A stretch of 64,000 nt of DNA from Agathobacter sp. Its GTDB lineage: Bacteria; Bacillota; Clostridia; Lachnospirales; Lachnospiraceae. A program made the position numbers and the translations under genes. Shown piece after piece: positions 17,589-27,327 of the stretch. The notes under the pieces were generated by a model. It had not been told where the DNA came from. It was given only the letters and a program-made list of their open reading frames with translations, and ran no database searches. Position 1 is the first letter of the stretch; every line of letters starts with the position of its first letter. Location: positions 17,071-81,070 of the forward strand of contig JBJENM010000162.1 in the NCBI GenBank assembly GCA_051880175.1. The letters run 5' to 3'.

Positions 17589-19526
17589 TTACTCTGATTT
17601 CAGATTATTTAAAAGCTCCCTAACCTGATCTGCTACGGAGACAATCATAGTGCTGGATGCAGAAATCTCTTCCGTTGCAGAAGCCAGATTCTGGATTCGT
17701 CCGTTTACGCCTGCAATAATCTTCATCAAATCACTCGTTTCTTTCAGAATTACCTGGATGGACTCCAGAACCTTCTGCTGGCTGACGCTGCTCTTAGTTG
17801 CCGTGTTCTTGGAATCTGCAGCCAACTGGTTGATTTCATCCGCAACAACCGCAAAGCCTCTTCCCGCTTCGCCTGCTCTTGCAGCCTCAATGCTAGCATT
17901 TAATGCAAGCAGATTGGTCTGTGATGCAATGGATACAACCTCCTCATTATTCTTCCCCAGCTCGCTGATCAAATCCCAAATCTCATTCATAGACTCGTTC
18001 AGGCGCTCGCAGAAGTTAGATACGTTAAGCACATCCATTGAAATTCCGGTACTCTCCTCTGCATTGTTCTCATTGCCCTTCGACATATCATCCAGCGATT
18101 GATACAGCCTGATAAAGTGCTGATTAATCTGCTCCACGGTTTCCTCAATTACCTGATTCTGCTCCGCCAGCCTCTGCTTATCATTCTCTACCTCCCGTGC
18201 AAGCTCCAATGCACGCTCCTTCTCTTCTTCCACCTCATCCTTCACGTAATGGATGCAGTTTTCTTTGTAATTAAATCCATTGTAAATCGCGGTAGCCATC
18301 TTCTGGCAGGTTTCATAACCACAACACTCGCAGTTGATTTTTCTGGACTCTGCCGTATGCTTATTCATATCATTAAATATTGCATCCAGCTCATTTTGAT
18401 CCGGAATCCGATAGCTGCATTCCGTAGACCGATCCGTATAGGTGCGCAGAAAATCATTCAGATTCAGCTTCTCAAACTGCTTGTTGAGGGCCGTCAGCCT
18501 TTGCTTTGGCGTTCTCTGTCTCGCCCAGGCACTATGCTTGGAGTTCTTCTTGCTTTCCTCCTTAATCTTCTGGATATAAAACAGCGCGTCATCCGTCCCC
18601 GCTTTGTCTTTCTCAACTGCCGTACCGTACAAGCAGCCCGCGCTGCAATTTAATGCATCCACAAACAGTTCCCGGTTACGTCCTTCCGCAATCTCTTTGG
18701 CATGTTTTTCAAAGTAGCTGTAAACATGCTTCTCTCCTTCCACCTGGCGGATGTAGACATCCTCCCCCAGGAACCAGTACACATTTTCTTTTAGACCACC
18801 CGGCATCGGATAAATAGAGCCAAGACCATATTCAATCTCGTCGGTACGAAGCGGTCCTCCGATTTTATGTTCTCTAACATATTTCATCAGATGCTCAAAG
18901 GTAACATTATAGGAAACATATCCATTGGTATTGGGATCATCAATCTCATTTTTCTTGGCAATACACGGACTGATAAAGGCAAGCTTATCGGTAATTCCCA
19001 TATATTTCTTTGCGTAAATCGCACCACACATCATGGGACTGTGCACCGGAAACAGCCGCGGAATCAGCTCCGGTATATAGCGTTCAATATATCCCACAAT
19101 TGCCGGGCAAGGCTGGGAAATTCCACCCTTGAAATTGTACTTCTGCACATAGTTCAGATATCCCCATGTCGTAATGTCCGCACCAAAAGAGATACTAACA
19201 ATGTGATTCACGCCAAGCTGCTTCAAACCACCCAGCACACTCTCGTATTCGCTTGGATAGTTGGCTTTAAAGGCCGGTGCCAGAAGCAGGGATATCTTTT
19301 CCCCCTTCGCAAGATCTGCAAAAAATCTCTCCGTATCATCATTGAATTCACGGGCATTGTGTTCACAGGCATCAATGCAGGCTCCACAGGCAACACATTT
19401 TGCAGGATCGACACTGATTCTTGTCTTCCCTTTTGTCTCCTCTGCAACACAGGCTCCAATACAGCTGCAGGCACGAATACACTTATTGCAGCCTATGCAG
19501 AAATCATTTGTAAAAACCAGTTGCAT
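17589..19526 (-). CDS. Sensory [FeFe]-hydrogenase-like domain fused to an MCP signalling domain
   Basis: Two 4Fe-4S motifs (CIGCNKC, CVACGAC); H-cluster-like [22 protein letters not shown]; C-terminal [27 protein letters not shown]. Confidence 0.88.
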
Positions 19527-19691
19527 TCGCAAACTCCCTCCGTATAGCATTCTTTTGATATAGTATATCATACTTTTTTCCTAGAATCTACCTTTTTGTC
19601 TATTATTAGTCTTCTTTTTTATTAACTTTAAGTTTTTTGTGATTAATTTTAATCATTTCTAAAGTTTACATTTTTCTTACCCACATAACAG

Positions 19692-19720
19692 AAAAATCCA
19701 CGGCAAACGCCGTGGATTTT
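19692..19720. terminator. Intrinsic terminator
   Basis: AAAATCCACGGC/GCCGTGGATTTT stem. Confidence 0.8.
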
Positions 19721-19739
19721 GAAATGTAATGCAGCAATT

Positions 19740-21002
19740 CTAGTTTATATACTCGCCAATCGTATCCTTTGCTTTATAGACAGCAGTTGTAAAGCTTCCA
19801 TCTTCGTTTCGGAAAATAACGCTTATCCGTAAGTCTGAAATATCATCGGACATTCCATATCCACTAATCCTCATATTCTCATCTTCCTCTATCATATAGT
19901 CAAGAAATCCGGTTGCTCCATATACCGTACACTCCAGATAGCTGTCATAATATGAGCCAAAATCAATCCATCCGTTTTGATCGGGATATGCAGTTAATAT
20001 CGATTCCTTATTGATTACAAAATAATCATCCAGGTTTTCTTTCGTGAGTGTATGCAGCCATTCCCTGATTGCTGCATGCTCTGCTTCCTTTGAATCCTCA
20101 TATTCTACCGGGTTCTCATTTTCCTTTAAAGTCTCAGCCTCCGCACTCTCATTTTCTTCTGAAATCACAGTTTCTTCCGAGCTCTCACTTTCTTTTGAAT
20201 TCTCAGCCTCTTCCTTCTTCAGTTCCTCCAGATACTGTTGTACGGCAGTTTCATCGGCTAATGTCTTATCAAGCGGCAGTTGAAACAACGCAGCCGTTCC
20301 TTCATAATCTTCCACCTTACGATAAGCTCCACTTTCTTCGTCCATGTGAAACGCGGCATTCTCCCTTCCGAACATATCTACAACGCCCAGATATACTCCT
20401 CTGTCCGCAAATATTTCCAGATTATCGCAGGTATACAGTTCATACAATACCCCATCCTGTACAAACCAGGTAAGCGAGCCTCCCATATTTGCATTATTCA
20501 TATCTGAAAACGGAATGCCACTGACCAATGCGGAAATGCACAGATTGTCAACCTTTATATCCGTTTCGTCCACCCTCTCAATCGCAAAGGCCGCATAGGT
20601 CTTTTTCCTGTCAATCTCAGACTTCTTCCCCTCCGGAACATAAGCATCCAGATTTTCGCCGCTTACCAATCCTAATAATGTGATACGATATCCATTGCTG
20701 ATCTGTGTTTCATTTATTTCGATTGCGCAATCGCTTTCGAAGACATTGCTCAACCTTATATTATGCGCTTCTTCCGCTATCTGGGCCGGATTCAAAAAAT
20801 GATATGCAGCATAGGCAGTAATACTTCCGGTAGCTAATACACATACGCATGCCGCCACCGCAGCTTTGGGGTAAAAGTGCTTTCTTTTCATGGTTCGATC
20901 CTCCTTAGACCATCTTTCCAGAATCTGACGATTCAATGCCGGAGCAGGTTCATCCCTTGCCATTAGAGAATCAAATAACAGGTCTTCTATTTGTTTACTC
21001 AT
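19740..21002 (-). CDS. Probable single-TM anti-sigma factor
   Basis: Overlaps the ECF sigma stop; short cytoplasmic N-terminus, TM AAVAACVCVLATGSITAYAA, acidic extracellular part. Confidence 0.6.
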   Translation of the reverse strand: MSKQIEDLLFDSLMARDEPAPALNRQILERWSKEDRTMKRKHFYPKAAVAACVCVLATGSITAYAAYHFLNPAQIAEEAHNIRLSNVFESDCAIEINETQISNGYRITLLGLVSGENLDAYVPEGKKSEIDRKKTYAAFAIERVDETDIKVDNLCISALVSGIPFSDMNNANMGGSLTWFVQDGVLYELYTCDNLEIFADRGVYLGVVDMFGRENAAFHMDEESGAYRKVEDYEGTAALFQLPLDKTLADETAVQQYLEELKKEEAENSKESESSEETVISEENESAEAETLKENENPVEYEDSKEAEHAAIREWLHTLTKENLDDYFVINKESILTAYPDQNGWIDFGSYYDSYLECTVYGATGFLDYMIEEDENMRISGYGMSDDISDLRISVIFRNEDGSFTTAVYKAKDTIGEYIN

Positions 21003-21518
21003 CCATGTACTCCTCCAAGTCTTTTTCCAGAGATTTTCTGGCACAATTTAGTCTGCTTTTTACCGTTCCTACGGGAATGCCTAAAGCTGCCGCAATTTCT
21101 TTTAGAGACAGTTCTTCCATATAGAACAGTAAAATTGGAATTCTGTATTTTTCATCCAATCTGTCAACCGCCTCCTGTACTGCCTGATTTCTTTCTCTAT
21201 CCAAATAGCTCAAAAGAGCATCTCCACCCATATCCGGCTGCGTGCCTGCAGTATTTTCAGATAGTTCCTCCTGTGGTGCAATTCTGTTTCGCCATGCATA
21301 TTTTCTTTTTTGGTTCTTCCATATTCCTATGCAACAGAGAGTAAATAGCTTTTCACATTTTTTGAGTATGTAATCTTTTTTATATTGCGGCATGCAATCA
21401 GCCAGGTCTCCTGATAAAGATCGTCAGCAGTAACACTGTTTCGCGTCAGTTGCAGACAAAATGAGTATATACTTTTTCCATAGAGTTCAATGATCTGCTC
21501 AAGTTCCTGAATCGTCAT
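20995..21518 (-). pseudogene. ECF sigma factor split by a 1-nt frameshift near 21330
   Basis: Region 2 (ADDLYQETWL..KSYLLSVA) ends at TAG; region 4 (LSLKEIAAALGIPVGTVKSRL) is in another frame; one extra base restores GCA-ATA-GGA. Confidence 0.85.
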
Positions 21519-21615: not shown

Positions 21616-21954
21616 TCATGTATTCCGAATGCACTTCATCATTTTATTCTTATTTCCGTCGAACCATAGCTCGCAGAAATCATTCATGCACTCTGCTATA
21701 TAAGCTTCAAAGGGCATAGTTGCACTTTGAAAGGAATCTCTGCCATCCCTGTAGGAGATCACATACCCTTTTTTTACCATTCTCTGCAAAAAAGTCACAA
21801 TTGTTGTTCTCGCATAGTCGCATCCGAAATGTTTCTCCAGATAGGGACCGATGCTCTTTGTCGGGATATTTTTCCCTCCCATATCATAAATTGCTTTTAA
21901 AATAAGCTTCTCATGCAGACTTAGCGCCACACCGTATTTATCTTGAATTGCCAA
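21616..21954 (-). CDS. BlaI/MecI/CopY-family repressor
   Basis: LS..E..IL, YARTTIVTFLQRMVKKGYV wHTH, FCELWFDG; TTG start with RBS AGGAGG. Confidence 0.8.
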   Translation of the reverse strand: MAIQDKYGVALSLHEKLILKAIYDMGGKNIPTKSIGPYLEKHFGCDYARTTIVTFLQRMVKKGYVISYRDGRDSFQSATMPFEAYIAECMNDFCELWFDGNKNKMMKCIRNT

Positions 21955-22120: not shown

Positions 22121-22912
22121 TTAACAAAACGGATACATGCCATGCTCTTCCATATATTTTACGGAGGCCTCCAGGTCCTCATACCCCCGTACCTCAAGCA
22201 ATACCGATGGGCGCTTTTCTTTTGGAAGTGCCTCTGTATACTCCTTGTACAGGTCCCAGGGCAGTTGCATACTTCCCACCGGATGATGGGAATCCTGAAG
22301 CTTATCGTTGTCATTGATATGCAAATGCCTTGCATAGGTCGCAAGCTCCATAATCCACTCCGACAATGGTGTATTGGAAATATATGCATGAGCCAGATCA
22401 AAGCATACGCCGAACCTCGGCTCATCCTTCATTCGGATTGCAAGCTGTTTTAATAATTCCGGGTCATCATCAAACATATTTTCCATGTAAACCATAAGCT
22501 TCGGATATTCCGCAAGTAAGTCTCTCCAATACTTCTCGTTTCGATCCAGCCAGCTTTTCCTGTAGCTTTCCAGGCGAAATGTCGGTATATGGTTCGTATG
22601 AAAAATCACAGCTTTCACGCCAAGCTCCCTTGCAATATCCATGCTCTGATGGATACGGTAATCCGAGGCCTTAAAAATAAGTGGGTCATCTGAATTTACA
22701 CAGATATCCAAAAATACTCCATGGAGCGTATCCTCGCTTCTATCGCGGTCAATGGCTTTATATGCCGACAGGATTTCTTTTACCTTTTCCTCATCGTCCA
22801 ATACCGACGGCAGGAAAAAGTCATTATATTCAAACCCTGCGTTATACTTTTTTGAGAAACTCAGGAAGCTGGATATTTGATTCAACTTTGGAATACAATA
22901 AACGTACTTCAT
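22121..22912 (-). CDS. Xylose-isomerase-like / AP-endonuclease-2 TIM-barrel metalloenzyme
   Basis: Metal-ligand motifs LHG, FHT, MENM, FDLAH, HLHINDN..DSH..G, LEV. Confidence 0.8.
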   Translation of the reverse strand: MKYVYCIPKLNQISSFLSFSKKYNAGFEYNDFFLPSVLDDEEKVKEILSAYKAIDRDRSEDTLHGVFLDICVNSDDPLIFKASDYRIHQSMDIARELGVKAVIFHTNHIPTFRLESYRKSWLDRNEKYWRDLLAEYPKLMVYMENMFDDDPELLKQLAIRMKDEPRFGVCFDLAHAYISNTPLSEWIMELATYARHLHINDNDKLQDSHHPVGSMQLPWDLYKEYTEALPKEKRPSVLLEVRGYEDLEASVKYMEEHGMYPFC

Positions 22913-24878
22913 TGATGAACTCCTTTCTTGCCCTCATGTTTGGCGGCTTTGGTTTATCGATTTCTTCAACACTGTAGGCATCTACATTCTGACTTTTTCC
23001 TTTCAGGGATAATGCACCGACAAATTCCACTTTTGCCCGCTCTTCAATGGCTCTTTTTACTGTTTCGCTCACTAAGATCTGATCGGAAGCCGCATTGGAT
23101 TCCAGTCTCGAAGCGGTATTGACCGTATCGCCAATGGCGGTATAATCCATTCTTCTTAAACAGCCGATATTTCCGACAATTGCTTCTCCTGCATTAATAC
23201 CGATTCCAACATGAATCTCTTTTCCATACAGCTTCTGATATTTTTCCGTAATCGATGCAAACCCCTTTTGAATGTCATCAGCCGCACATACCGCATGAAA
23301 GATATAGTCTTCCTCATCCTTCGGCGCATTAAAGATTGCCATGGCAGCGTCTCCGATAAATTTGTCCAAAGTACCGTTCCATGCCTGAATAGAGGCGTAG
23401 ACCAATGTGAAATATTCATTCAAAACGGTAACAACCTGTTCCGGCTCAAGCTGCTCCGACATGGTGGTAAAGCCTCGTATATCCACAAATAGTACTGCGA
23501 TATTCTTACGTTCACTTACCATTTTGAGTGCATAGGGTGAAACATCCTCAATCTGATCTACCACTTTGGAATCCACATACATCTTTAGTGTTGCTTCCAT
23601 TCTCTTTCGTTCCACGAACTGCATGATCATATGCTGAATCAGAAAAATGATGACAGACACGACCGTAAATACCAGAGGAATCAACAGCATAAACCGATAT
23701 CCCTGCATATTCAAAGCAAATGCAATCGCAAATACGCTAATGCCCCAGCAGAGCTGTCCTACAAAGGCCAGCAAACGCTTCCTGCTGGAAAACAGGATAT
23801 AGAATATAGTTATGGTAATCCCATAAAAAAGAGCCTGAAACAAAGGGTCCACCTCTACAACAACCTTATCCCTGATAAGAGCCTGCAGAATAGACGCATC
23901 TACCATTACTTCCTGATACAGAAAGCGTGCGTCGAAGAAGTCTTTGGGATTGCTGTAGGAAATGGGATCATACTCTCCGACGAGCACCATTTTTCCTGCG
24001 ATAAGCTCAGGGTCATAGCTTCCCGAAATCAACTGGGAATAGGATATCTTCTGATAGCTTTCCGTATTCCACAACGCATTGAAACCGAACATTCCCTCTG
24101 TATCCGGCTTCGGAAGTTCAAACTCTTCTCCGGTTACTTCCTGATATATTTTACATACGGAAACGGCAAATGCGTCATATTCCTCATCCTGATATCTTAC
24201 AGAAAGAGCCGCATTTCGAATCGTTCCGTCTACCGACTGCTGCAGCGCATTGACAACACCCATAGAGACTACGTCGCATAAATCCGCATAGGGGTACTCT
24301 ATATGCACTTCCATCTGCCCCAAAATTTCATCGGAGGCAACCGGTGCCGGTGTTTTAAATTCACTGGGCCCTGCTTCCAAGGAAGCCTCCATTCCTTCGA
24401 ATTCCTCGTCCCTTTTCAATTTCTCCTGATCATCATCTACATCAAATTCCCGGAAGGAAGCATTCATTGGAACGACAACATTTCCGGCTTTTTCGCAGGC
24501 AGCTACCAATGCATCATCTCCTGCTTTATCCTTCTCCCCGGACAGATTGACATCCAGTCCGATAACTGCTGCCCCATCCGCAGATAAAATATCCACAAGA
24601 TTAGCATACTTTTCTCTGGACCACTCATTGTTGTCCCCATACAAAGCCTTTGTTTCTTCATCAATGGTAATAATCGTTATCCGCTTATCTCCACGCTCAA
24701 ATGGATTATACTTATACAGCGCATTCGTCAGAGCTTCATCCGCCCGATAAAAAACGCGGGTATACGACAGCGATGCCGCCGATATACCCAGATAAACAGC
24801 AATAATAACTGTCGTAATCCGGCGGACTTTCGATTTGAGGAAATACCCTTCCTTTTTCTTTTTTTCCGTTCGTGCCAT
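22842..24878 (-). CDS. CHASE2-domain membrane class III adenylate cyclase
   Basis: CHASE2 (ITIDEET..WSR..GAAVIGLD..DGTIR); three TM helices; LFVDIRGFT, DKFIGDAAMAIF, DYTAIGDTVNTASRLE. Confidence 0.92.
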   Translation of the reverse strand: MARTEKKKKEGYFLKSKVRRITTVIIAVYLGISAASLSYTRVFYRADEALTNALYKYNPFERGDKRITIITIDEETKALYGDNNEWSREKYANLVDILSADGAAVIGLDVNLSGEKDKAGDDALVAACEKAGNVVVPMNASFREFDVDDDQEKLKRDEEFEGMEASLEAGPSEFKTPAPVASDEILGQMEVHIEYPYADLCDVVSMGVVNALQQSVDGTIRNAALSVRYQDEEYDAFAVSVCKIYQEVTGEEFELPKPDTEGMFGFNALWNTESYQKISYSQLISGSYDPELIAGKMVLVGEYDPISYSNPKDFFDARFLYQEVMVDASILQALIRDKVVVEVDPLFQALFYGITITIFYILFSSRKRLLAFVGQLCWGISVFAIAFALNMQGYRFMLLIPLVFTVVSVIIFLIQHMIMQFVERKRMEATLKMYVDSKVVDQIEDVSPYALKMVSERKNIAVLFVDIRGFTTMSEQLEPEQVVTVLNEYFTLVYASIQAWNGTLDKFIGDAAMAIFNAPKDEEDYIFHAVCAADDIQKGFASITEKYQKLYGKEIHVGIGINAGEAIVGNIGCLRRMDYTAIGDTVNTASRLESNAASDQILVSETVKRAIEERAKVEFVGALSLKGKSQNVDAYSVEEIDKPKPPNMRARKEFINEVRLLYSKVESNIQLPEFLKKV

Positions 24879-24890
24879 TTCTTTACCACC

Positions 24891-25451
24891 CTATTTTGAC
24901 AGTTGTTGTATGTACTCCGTATTCAATTTTTCAAGAGACGAGCTCAGATATTTAAGCAGCGTCCAGACATAGTCCGGGTCCTTTTTTGCAATTGCATCAA
25001 AGGCGCGAACATCCATTTTCTGCACCGTCTGATAAATGGGATTCTTTTTATACTGATACACAAATCGTTTATCCGCCTGTTCAATCTTATCCAGCATGGT
25101 ATTTAAACGATTATTCAAACTCAGTAAAATACGATAGGTAATTGAAGTTGCATTCAGTAAAAGCATTGCAAAATCGGTCTCGGAAACTTCCAATACAATA
25201 ACCTGTTCAGATACCGCAACAACAGATGCCGAGCGTGGCTTTGACTCCAAAAGGGACATCTCGCCAAAAAAGCTTCCTTCCTCCACCAGCCCAACCGACT
25301 GTGGATTGTCCGAAAAAGAATTGATCAGCACCTCAGCACTTCCCTTTAACAATACAAACATGGAATGTCCGGTCTCACCTTCACGGCAGATAGACTGTCC
25401 TCCCTGAAAGGTAACCACCTTGCCACAGTCCTTTAGTAAATCAACATCCAT
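24891..25451 (-). CDS. Stand-alone cyclic-nucleotide-binding protein without HTH
   Basis: ICREGE..MFVLLKG; phosphate-binding cassette FFGEMSLLESKPRSASV; RBS AAGGAG. Confidence 0.88.
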   Translation of the reverse strand: MDVDLLKDCGKVVTFQGGQSICREGETGHSMFVLLKGSAEVLINSFSDNPQSVGLVEEGSFFGEMSLLESKPRSASVVAVSEQVIVLEVSETDFAMLLLNATSITYRILLSLNNRLNTMLDKIEQADKRFVYQYKKNPIYQTVQKMDVRAFDAIAKKDPDYVWTLLKYLSSSLEKLNTEYIQQLSK

Positions 25452-25622: not shown

Positions 25623-27071
25623 CTATAAATATTTTACTGCCCAGGCACTCTGGTTTGCTCCGACTCCTGTAATACACATGGTAGGATTTCCCGCTTCATC
25701 ATTCAGTTGGACGATAACCCCTTCAAATTCGATCTCTCCGATCTGAAATGTGATTCTGCTTTCCCCATCAAGGGAGTAATATCCATAAGGCTTCTCTTCT
25801 TTTAGTGAATTATTCGGTTTCTCGCTCTGATCCGCATATTTTAGGATTTCGCCGGCTCTTGTAAATTCTACCCGTAATGGTTTGTGCATCTCATTGGAAA
25901 TATCCAGTCCATGCTCCACCAGATAAAAGGTTCCGCACACCTCCGCTTCGTGGTAATTTTTAGAGCAGAGCATCTCCCCATCCGTGGCAAAAGGGCATAC
26001 GGTAAGCCAATTATTTCCGGTCCGAAACAGCTGATGTACTCGCGGTTCATGCATTTCACTTTCCACATCAAATCTCTGGTGGTACACGATATAAATCTTA
26101 CCATCCTGATCCTTGAAGGCACTGTTATGTCCCGGAGATTTGTAGCCATATTCCATGCTTGGGAATATATAATTTCCCAAAAGCTTCACCCCGTAGGGAT
26201 CATGATGATTGACACGGCGGAAGGTTTTTCCCTCCATATCGACATATGGTCCTTCCAGTTTTTTGGAACGGAACATTCGGATCTGATAACCACCTTCTCT
26301 TCCCAGCCATCCGAAGGAAACAAAAAGATAATAATAGTCCGCCACAGAATCGTATAAAATAAAAGGTCCTTCGATGGACTTATGTCCACCACCCAGTATT
26401 TTTCTTCCAAAATAAGAATCTACCATATTCTTAGGATCACGCTTCGGATGAATCGGTAATCCGGTCTTCTCATCCATTTCAATCAAAAAAATTCCACCGG
26501 ACCAGGAGCCATAGACCATCCACAGCCTTCCCTCTTTGTCATGGAAAAGATTCGGGTCAATGCAGTTCGGCCAGCTTAAATTGTTATAGCTTCCATTTTT
26601 CTTAAAATATACAGAGGTATCATCTGAGCCGATACATTCCTTTACGTTCGTTTTTTCAATCGTATCACGCTCAAATCCGGAATACAAAATGACACGCTCA
26701 AAATGATAGGGGCCACGGACCTGATCCGCGGTTGCCATACAGATACAGGATTTGATATAGGAGCCTGAAGTACAAAAATACATCACATACTTTTTCAGAT
26801 ACGGATTGTAGGATACATCAGGCGCCCATACTGCATATTCCTTCCCTTCGAATTTCCCGCAAAAAGCAAAAGCTTCCCGGTCTCCTTCAAAAAGATTATC
26901 AAACAGCGGATTCTCCTCGCTCACACCATCCGCGAAGCTTTCCCAGTACCGCAGATCCTTTGAAACCGCAGCTGTCATATGCGTTCCAAAAATATAGTAA
27001 TTATCATCATTTCCTACGAATACTGCCGGATCATGAACCGGTGTCTGCGTATGAAATCCTCCAACCTTCAT
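25623..27071 (-). CDS. GH43 endo-arabinanase-like enzyme with C-terminal lipocalin-like domain, no signal peptide
   Basis: HDP, WAPD, CIDP, YGSWSGGI, EGP, PGHNS motifs. Confidence 0.88.
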   Translation of the reverse strand: MKVGGFHTQTPVHDPAVFVGNDDNYYIFGTHMTAAVSKDLRYWESFADGVSEENPLFDNLFEGDREAFAFCGKFEGKEYAVWAPDVSYNPYLKKYVMYFCTSGSYIKSCICMATADQVRGPYHFERVILYSGFERDTIEKTNVKECIGSDDTSVYFKKNGSYNNLSWPNCIDPNLFHDKEGRLWMVYGSWSGGIFLIEMDEKTGLPIHPKRDPKNMVDSYFGRKILGGGHKSIEGPFILYDSVADYYYLFVSFGWLGREGGYQIRMFRSKKLEGPYVDMEGKTFRRVNHHDPYGVKLLGNYIFPSMEYGYKSPGHNSAFKDQDGKIYIVYHQRFDVESEMHEPRVHQLFRTGNNWLTVCPFATDGEMLCSKNYHEAEVCGTFYLVEHGLDISNEMHKPLRVEFTRAGEILKYADQSEKPNNSLKEEKPYGYYSLDGESRITFQIGEIEFEGVIVQLNDEAGNPTMCITGVGANQSAWAVKYL

Positions 27072-27112
27072 ATATTACCCTTCTATGCTTTCTGTAAAAA
27101 TATTATATATTA

Positions 27113-27292
27113 CTCTCATTTCGGATTTGTGTTCCAAAATGAATTTGCATATTCGAACCAGAACCCGCTTTCGCTTGTAAAAAGCGTAGCGGTACTAAAT
27201 TCGCAATAAATTGCTCATTAAGTGCCGACGCTTTTTAAACGTTCTGATTCGAATAGCAAAATTCATTCTATGGAACACAATTCCGAAATTAG
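27113..27292. repeat. ~180-bp hairpin element, full copy C (reverse orientation)
   Basis: Reverse complement of the copy A core (TTCGCAATAAATTGCTCATTAAGTGCCGACGCTTTTTAAACGTTCTGATTC). Confidence 0.9.
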
Positions 27293-27327
27293 AATCATTT
27301 TACTTTTTACTAAAATTCTTGATATGT

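Follow-up and report, generated by a model that had tools for sequence, protein, structure and literature searches.

Within a 64,000-nucleotide stretch of Agathobacter sp. DNA (contig JBJENM010000162.1, positions 17,071 to 81,070 of the forward strand; hereafter the window) we analysed three adjacent genes that encode a cyclic nucleotide monophosphate (cNMP)-binding protein, a membrane nucleotide cyclase and a metal-binding triosephosphate isomerase (TIM) barrel. The pairing of the cyclase with the TIM barrel recurred across related genomes, and the TIM barrel is probably the enzyme that removes the cyclic AMP (cAMP) which the cyclase is predicted to make. The source genome (G000) is 69% complete. 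The three genes are as follows.

24891..25451, minus strand: P0001, stand-alone cNMP-binding protein of 186 aa (Pfam PF00027, E 7.5e-19)
22842..24878, minus strand: P0002, membrane CHASE2 class III nucleotide cyclase of 678 aa (PF05226, 3e-25; PF00211, 1.3e-28)
22121..22912, minus strand: P0003, AP_endonuc_2 (endonuclease IV-like) TIM barrel of 263 aa (PF01261, 1.6e-15)

The minus-strand coordinates and the tight spacing agreed with a preliminary description of this DNA, with 12 bp separating P0001 and P0002 (24879-24890) and 71 bp shared by the reading frames of P0002 and P0003. The overlap was not conserved, as the end of the cyclase relative to the start of the TIM was variable among relatives. 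P0001 starts at an ATG preceded by AAGGAG, and a clear purine-rich ribosome site lies before the first and third genes. Scanning the locus for promoters and terminators gave no surplus over shuffled sequence (7 versus 10.6 and 4 versus 3.2). In one pig-gut metatranscriptome, contigs about 90-96% alike covered P0001-P0003 and two of these bridged gene junctions; zero contigs lay over 19500-21368 or 25641-26975. As this was a single study offering contigs only, with no strand and from a related strain, these contigs were not counted as proof of co-transcription.

P0002 starts with a transmembrane segment (residues 21-39) followed by the CHASE2 domain (43-352, PF05226), three transmembrane segments within 346-414 and the catalytic domain (456-636), and hydropathy gave four hydrophobic segments flanking CHASE2. 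The match to PF00211 together with the full ATP-type residue set placed P0002 among the class III cyclases. Its motifs are FVD466IRGF, DK506FIGD510, D578YTAIGDTVN587TASR591 and K626GK, in which we take D466 and D510 to bind metal, K506 and D578 to specify adenine and N587 and R591 to be catalytic, as in other class III enzymes. The ATP-type lysine and aspartate and the catalytic N..SR noted in the preliminary description were all present (K506, D578, N587, R591), and motifs of this type recurred among TIM-linked cyclases. From these residues P0002 is predicted to be an adenylate cyclase and the writer of the module. The same genome encodes a second CHASE2 cyclase (L203; G000:C101:686-6753) in the order cyclase, GAF-HD-GYP, a 500-aa protein matching neither Pfam nor NCBIfam models and a FecR protein; no TIM or metallo-beta-lactamase (MBL) gene was found at that locus.

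The sole Pfam domain of P0001 is PF00027. Its nucleotide cassette (FFGEMSLL..PRSA) is intact, with G63, E64, P72, R73, S74 and A75 invariant in 17/17 aligned sequences, and Foldseek matched it to cNMP-binding proteins such as CRP, PKA-R and PKG. The structure model (predicted local distance difference test, pLDDT, 87.9) contains a long C-helix followed by a conserved tail of about 60 aa that is all helical. No helix-turn-helix or enzyme domain was found by Pfam, NCBIfam or fold search, and no TIR or membrane domain was matched by Pfam. The CRP family model aligned to residues 12-124 only (47.4 bits against a cut-off of 266) and full-length CRP superposed with a root mean square deviation (rmsd) of 12-16. 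With the cNMP domain and cassette present and the C-terminal helix-turn-helix missing, P0001 falls outside the Crp/Fnr transcription factors. DUF2225 was considered for the tail and rejected, as there was no match to the DUF2225 part of a cNMP-DUF2225 protein. Judged from its sequence P0001 is likely the cAMP reader, and its most likely mode of action is binding to a protein partner. P0001 has no recognisable output domain, so its output may lie elsewhere and the operon need not be self-contained. The preliminary description had proposed a self-contained writer-reader-eraser module; the module itself and the TIM as candidate phosphodiesterase were supported by our analysis, and "self-contained" proved too strong, given the missing output domain and a second cyclase without a TIM.

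P0003 scored 57.9 bits against PF01261 (cut-off 31.1) and its structure was modelled with confidence (pLDDT 96.1). The nearest solved structure was TTHB071 (Z 25.0, rmsd 3.0, 236 aligned residues) followed by MJ1311 (Z 23.6), and the sequence matched the same two proteins (E 4e-8 and 1.5e-6, respectively). The next structures were epimerases and endonuclease IV at Z 20-22 (epimerases overall Z 20-24). cAMP phosphodiesterases are known from three folds, HD, metallo-beta-lactamase and calcineurin-like. PF01261 alone matched P0003 and the top structures were all AP_endonuc_2-type barrels, with no HD, metallo-beta-lactamase or calcineurin-like fold among them. Nine metal ligands were identified (H64, H105, E144, D172, H175, H198, D207, H209 and E240), invariant in 41/41 aligned relatives, which bears out the endonuclease-IV-like ligand set originally noticed in this gene. 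Their order and spacing equal those of the nine ligands given for Chlamydophila endonuclease IV (PMC13113976). The correspondence was drawn from this arrangement together with partial alignments against chains of endonuclease IV, and not from residue-level superposition. CbiR was the best NCBIfam match, below its cut-off (41.4 versus 105), and the endonuclease IV model TIGR00587 gave 24.5 against a cut-off of 129.65. At the 90% level 619 relatives of P0003 were found among 909 candidates, and at the 50% level there were 211 representatives at E<1e-30; the database name for these proteins is "sugar phosphate isomerase/epimerase". A comparison for residues specific to cyclase-linked TIMs gave weak candidates only (P8, Y51, F104, Y117 and W219).

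To describe the genomic setting of the TIM we used the 80 top-ranking GTDB loci (45-93% identity) among 532 confirmed relatives and a sample of 400 Lachnospiraceae-family genomes, about one per genus. Two rows were dropped, L140 with no TIM open reading frame called and L029 with its TIM lost to the overlap filter. A class III cyclase was present in 77/80 loci and was directly adjacent to the TIM in 73 by script and in L029 by inspection; of the three loci without a cyclase, one contig stops just upstream of the TIM. In the genomes, E-values were bimodal (<1e-60 or >1e-43) and a close TIM was defined as E<1e-60. A cyclase was found in all 37 close-TIM genomes as compared to 74/400 overall, and in 31 of the 37 it lay inside the fetched stretch. 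For each genome a limited number of candidates was scored, and not all genomes are complete, so a gene that the searches missed need not be absent. The linkage of TIM and cyclase is far beyond chance, and the possibility raised earlier that TIM homologues elsewhere stand apart from cyclases was decisively contradicted. The conserved core is the cyclase and the TIM, and the flanks vary between loci while this pair stays fixed.

The 21 distant TIM matches in the genome sample comprised a second linked subgroup (4), an unlinked sister clade (16) and one that was not called. The second linked subgroup has the order cNMP-TIM-cyclase, with cNMP-TIM-PAS-cyclase also seen and one TIM-cyclase fusion, and in metagenomes a cyclase and/or cNMP gene was adjacent in 10/10 close matches (14 loci). 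In a quick TIM tree the two linked groups had support of 98 and 96 and were joined at 84, and the unlinked clade stood apart with 92. A class III cyclase is encoded by about 18% of the sampled genomes, more than half of which also have this TIM, and each of the 59 positive genomes gave a single TIM match. The L203 locus lacks a TIM, whereas in its sister locus L213 a TIM stands between the cyclase and GAF-HD-GYP genes. L202 and L205 differ likewise, with a second cyclase locus lacking a local TIM and the TIM elsewhere in the genome. A single TIM copy alongside second cyclase loci without one would fit an enzyme that clears a shared diffusible pool. In a separate observation, a conserved gene pair at L257-L259, which looks to us like the AmmeMemoRadiSam system, is followed immediately by more distant relatives of the TIM.

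The third gene of the operon was not constant. Across the 80 loci it was a cNMP gene in 20, a Fic gene in 34, a GAF gene in 19 and none in view in 7, and the different kinds never co-occurred in one locus. The trio had been expected to be conserved as a unit; this held for the cyclase and TIM and failed for the cNMP gene, which is one of three interchangeable partners, the gene order of the window being found in 18/80 loci. Neither the 20 cNMP loci nor the 34 Fic loci contained a GAF protein, and TIM-cyclase fusions were found (P0244, P0254 and L131), from which we conclude that the TIM tracks the cyclase and not HD-GYP. The TIM was N-terminal in all full-length fusions, to GAF-HD-GYP, GAF-GGDEF and cyclase domains, and all nine ligands were retained in fusions of each type; one fusion cluster includes a member named from Sphaerochaetaceae. 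FecR-domain genes were present in 17/80 related loci, and further partners in the family were cNMP-SpoIIE and anti-sigma genes, GAF-GGDEF, GAF-ABC ATPase and FecR proteins. An N-K..F..D pattern, which we take to be typical of cAMP-binding GAFs, is present in the GAF-GGDEF and GAF-ABC domains.

The commonest form among the 80 loci was a Fic - CHASE2 cyclase - TIM operon (L031-L066 and L074, e.g. L043:5148-6059). The Fic protein is about 300 aa and overlaps or abuts the cyclase start in 30/33 loci, in the place of the cNMP gene, and HPFxDGNGR was intact in 31/33 by regular expression. No cAMP-binding domain was found in the Fic protein, and an atlas search with one Fic protein returned ordinary Fic clusters only, without an extra nucleotide-binding domain. 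Fic-type and cNMP-type TIMs are sister groups in the tree. That the Fic version couples cAMP to protein AMPylation is an idea we regard as doubtful.

Four further arrangements were observed. A recurring operon (L151, L152, L156, L158, L198, L199 and L204, e.g. L156:1789-7108) consists of TIM, GAF-GGDEF (sometimes fused to it), a TIR_2-domain protein, a class III cyclase of about 495 aa and a protein of about 320 aa with no Pfam or NCBIfam match. L205, L206, L202 and L147 (e.g. L205:3778-12972) have the order FecR - cNMP-SpoIIE - CHASE2 cyclase - TIM - anti-sigma-like - STAS-like - GGDEF and likely represent a cAMP-controlled partner-switching cascade; the anti-sigma-like and STAS-like genes are presumed to be such from the appearance of their sequences. 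At L082 (1005-9105) and L083 the order is GAF-ABC ATPase - cyclase - FtsX-like permease - TIM - FecR, a possible cAMP-gated transporter. CYTH-like genes were seen near the TIM at three unrelated loci, L123:6607-7050 by Pfam, L215:4588-5043 by clustering with L123 and L251:5153-5728 by appearance only.

Cyclase loci without a TIM often contained an MBL-fold protein of family PF12706 (11 loci), whose best PDB match was 6KNS (E 7.4e-12). 6KNS is YhfI, placed in one group with Rv1339 and Corynebacterium CpdA, both of them cAMP phosphodiesterases (PMC9293780). The MBL was found in 24/400 genomes, 23 of them with a cyclase, and in none holding a TIM of either group; the 74 cyclase genomes divided into 40 with TIM, 23 with MBL, 0 with both (12.4 expected) and 11 with neither. 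Directly upstream of 32 GAF-HD-GYP genes we counted 10 MBL and 10 TIM genes (1 fused), a count in which L184 was scored as "other" and L171 and L191 as "edge" though MBL matches lie there or just outside the sequence fetched. The clearest swap was between L187 (cyclase-MBL-GAF-HD-GYP) and L215 (cyclase-TIM-GAF-HD-GYP), whose cyclases fall in one clade (support 98): the L215 cyclase lies within the MBL clade and its TIM stands exactly where L187 has the MBL. As an MBL relative takes the TIM slot at other cyclase loci, the two likely share a role. One MBL locus without HD-GYP (L166:757-11893) has the MBL paired with a cNMP-DUF2225 protein, divergent from an NHL-repeat gene, a cyclase and FecR.

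With the cyclase and the readers accounted for, the TIM is the one constant part left and is the candidate for removing the signal. We therefore consider P0003 to be, with fair probability, the 3',5'-cAMP phosphodiesterase (eraser) of the module, its substrate being assigned from gene context. An outside signal would be received by the CHASE2 domain of P0002, which is predicted to make cAMP from ATP. cAMP would bind P0001, which may act on a partner via its helical tail. P0003 would cleave the cyclic phosphodiester at a three-metal site like that of endonuclease IV, for which the ligands are present and the substrate is suggested by the neighbouring genes. The cyclase and TIM would form a fixed core with the third gene as an exchangeable output, be it a cNMP protein, a cNMP-SpoIIE phosphatase, GAF-HD-GYP, GAF-GGDEF, a GAF-ABC ATPase or Fic, and other lineages of the family would use an MBL phosphodiesterase in place of the TIM. 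We lean, on balance, towards the wider proposal that the linked TIM clade is a new 3',5'-cAMP phosphodiesterase class, the main eraser of Lachnospiraceae, interchangeable with the MBL and at the core of a plug-in cAMP system with cyclic di-GMP (c-di-GMP), partner-switching and Fic outputs.

Several observations weigh against this proposal. The nine ligands are kept in the 16-locus sister clade (apart from the last one in a single row, where the alignment has a gap), and neither its neighbourhoods nor its genomes contain a cyclase; in other Bacillota families 0/20 fetched matches were cyclase-linked (23 matches in 390 genomes). The link is therefore a trait of one clade within the barrel family, and the substrate cannot be read from the ligands by themselves. 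The Fic-type loci (34/80) have no recognisable cAMP reader. The MBL scored below the cut-off of every NCBIfam model and its own substrate is likewise inferred. Among the 11 cyclase genomes with neither enzyme, 4 were weak cyclase matches and 7 were re-searched. In a 77-row quick tree the CHASE2 cyclases fell into two clades, one mostly with TIM and the other mostly with MBL (5 changes), and an independent-pairs sign test for exclusion was not significant (median p 0.25), so the exclusion is largely phylogenetic and the Fisher p of 3e-11 overstates it. There is also a cautionary case in SpdA, the predicted cAMP phosphodiesterase of the S. meliloti cyaD1 locus, which cleaves 2',3'- and not 3',5'-cAMP (PMC4222275).

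SpdA was proposed to shield readers (PMC4222275), and by this precedent the TIM could serve the module on another nucleotide, whether 2',3'-cNMP, cGMP or a linear product such as pGpG. We hold this to be a lesser possibility. It gains from TIMs that are fused to or adjoin GAF-HD-GYP and GAF-GGDEF proteins, and the displacement by MBL fits it equally, since MBL substrates vary. However, GAF-HD-GYP was missing from 54/80 loci and the TIM fuses directly to cyclases, both of which speak against pGpG, and with any of these substrates the loci would otherwise be without a phosphodiesterase to end the signal. It is unlikely that the TIM is instead an effector or protein-directed enzyme under the cNMP protein that cleaves a phosphodiester other than cAMP, for instance to take AMP off Fic-modified proteins. 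P0001 has no output domain and needs a partner, and the close coupling of intact Fic genes to the cyclase together with the sister relationship of Fic-type and cNMP-type TIMs would suit such a role, yet the TIM persists while its supposed controller swaps among unrelated domains, is single-copy, can sit away from the cyclase and is replaced by the MBL. The cAMP-controlled effector raised as an option in the preliminary description is on these grounds less likely than the phosphodiesterase.

If the TIM were a regulatory domain that binds metal or a nucleotide and adjusts the activity of the cyclase or of the GGDEF/HD-GYP enzymes instead of turning over cAMP, its N-terminal place in the fusions, usual for a sensor, would be explained; the full catalytic ligand set kept in those fusions and the alternation with an MBL hydrolase make this very unlikely. 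Hardly credible are the readings in which the TIM isomerises or epimerises sugars, or repairs DNA as an endonuclease IV, and just happens to neighbour the cyclase, or in which the operon serves Pycsar-like defence. The database names, the epimerase Z scores, glycoside hydrolase genes upstream and partial PADLOC matches to PycC/PycTIR point in these directions, but the flanks differ between loci as the pair stays fixed, and the host has its own Nfo elsewhere in the genome, above cut-off with a score of 299, whereas P0003 is acidic (32 K+R, 45 D+E) and falls far short of the Nfo model. Pycsar pairs a pyrimidine cyclase with an effector in which cNMP is joined to a TIR or membrane domain. The PADLOC matches cover shared domains only, the cyclase is purine-type with CHASE2 and P0001 has no TIR or membrane effector, on which basis Pycsar was rejected. 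PADLOC had no match for the TIM and the phage collection gave one unannotated record with 29% identity to it; neither resource gave anything pointing to the phage defence suggested initially.

Modules of the cyclase-phosphodiesterase type are already known. In Campylobacterota a CHASE2 cyclase is clustered with a phosphodiesterase, FecR and TPR proteins (PMC9239204), like the present locus in setting a cyclase beside a candidate cAMP phosphodiesterase; here the slot is filled by an AP_endonuc_2 barrel, FecR and TPR genes are missing from the window, and a stand-alone cNMP protein is present besides. The S. meliloti locus cyaD1 - clr - smc02177 (FecR) - spdA (PMC5498481, PMC4222275) likewise combines a receptor-like cyclase, a cNMP reader and a phosphoesterase. 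In contrast to P0001, Clr is a DNA-binding Crp protein with the helix-turn-helix that P0001 lacks, and SpdA is a class III, 2',3'-cNMP-specific enzyme and not an AP_endonuc_2 barrel. cAMP phosphodiesterase classes II and III are discussed in PMC9293780, and the atypical class II enzymes described there (Rv1339, YhfI and Corynebacterium CpdA) have the MBL fold and are not homologous to the TIM. TTHB071 of Thermus thermophilus (PDB 3AYT/3AYV) and MJ1311 (3WQO) share the H/H/E/D/H/H/D-x-H pattern with P0003 at about 23% and 18% identity, respectively, and both were deposited as uncharacterised. CbiR and endonuclease IV belong to the same superfamily (PF01261) and cleave phosphodiester bonds at a metal site, CbiR hydrolysing that of a small molecule (PMC7733943); their substrates are cobamides and abasic DNA, and no cobamide genes lie near P0003. 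The barrel had been put forward as a new-fold cNMP phosphodiesterase, and as CbiR and endonuclease IV show the fold is known among phosphodiesterases, though it would be new for cAMP. On the output side, the GAF-HD-GYP protein Tlr0485 is cAMP-dependent (bioRxiv 10.1101/2021.11.05.467447). No publication linking an AP_endonuc_2 barrel to cyclases or to cAMP hydrolysis was found among the top results of a literature search with few subscription journals. Compared with the known modules, the novelty lies in a barrel that fills the phosphodiesterase slot and in outputs that can be exchanged, Fic among them.

Three neighbouring features of the window were recorded. A BlaI/Penicillinase_R-like repressor gene lies 3' of the TIM (21616-21954, read 21954-21616) and was rejected as a module member, being behind the TIM in just 2/80 loci. 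Beyond it are an extracytoplasmic function (ECF) sigma factor gene (21393-20995) and an anti-sigma-like gene (21044-19740), neither of them conserved with the module. The short intergenic region 27100-27300 attracted contigs of many other records at very high depth in each of the three runs and is probably a widespread repeated or regulatory element 5' of a GH43 gene.

If the TIM is the eraser, cAMP phosphodiesterases would have a fourth fold, built on the endonuclease IV barrel, and a clade now labelled "sugar phosphate isomerase/epimerase" would gain a function. The missing eraser of cAMP signalling would be supplied for a dominant gut family. The swappable outputs (GAF-GGDEF, GAF-HD-GYP, cNMP-SpoIIE and Fic) outline routes by which cAMP may feed into c-di-GMP signalling and the modification of proteins in Clostridia.

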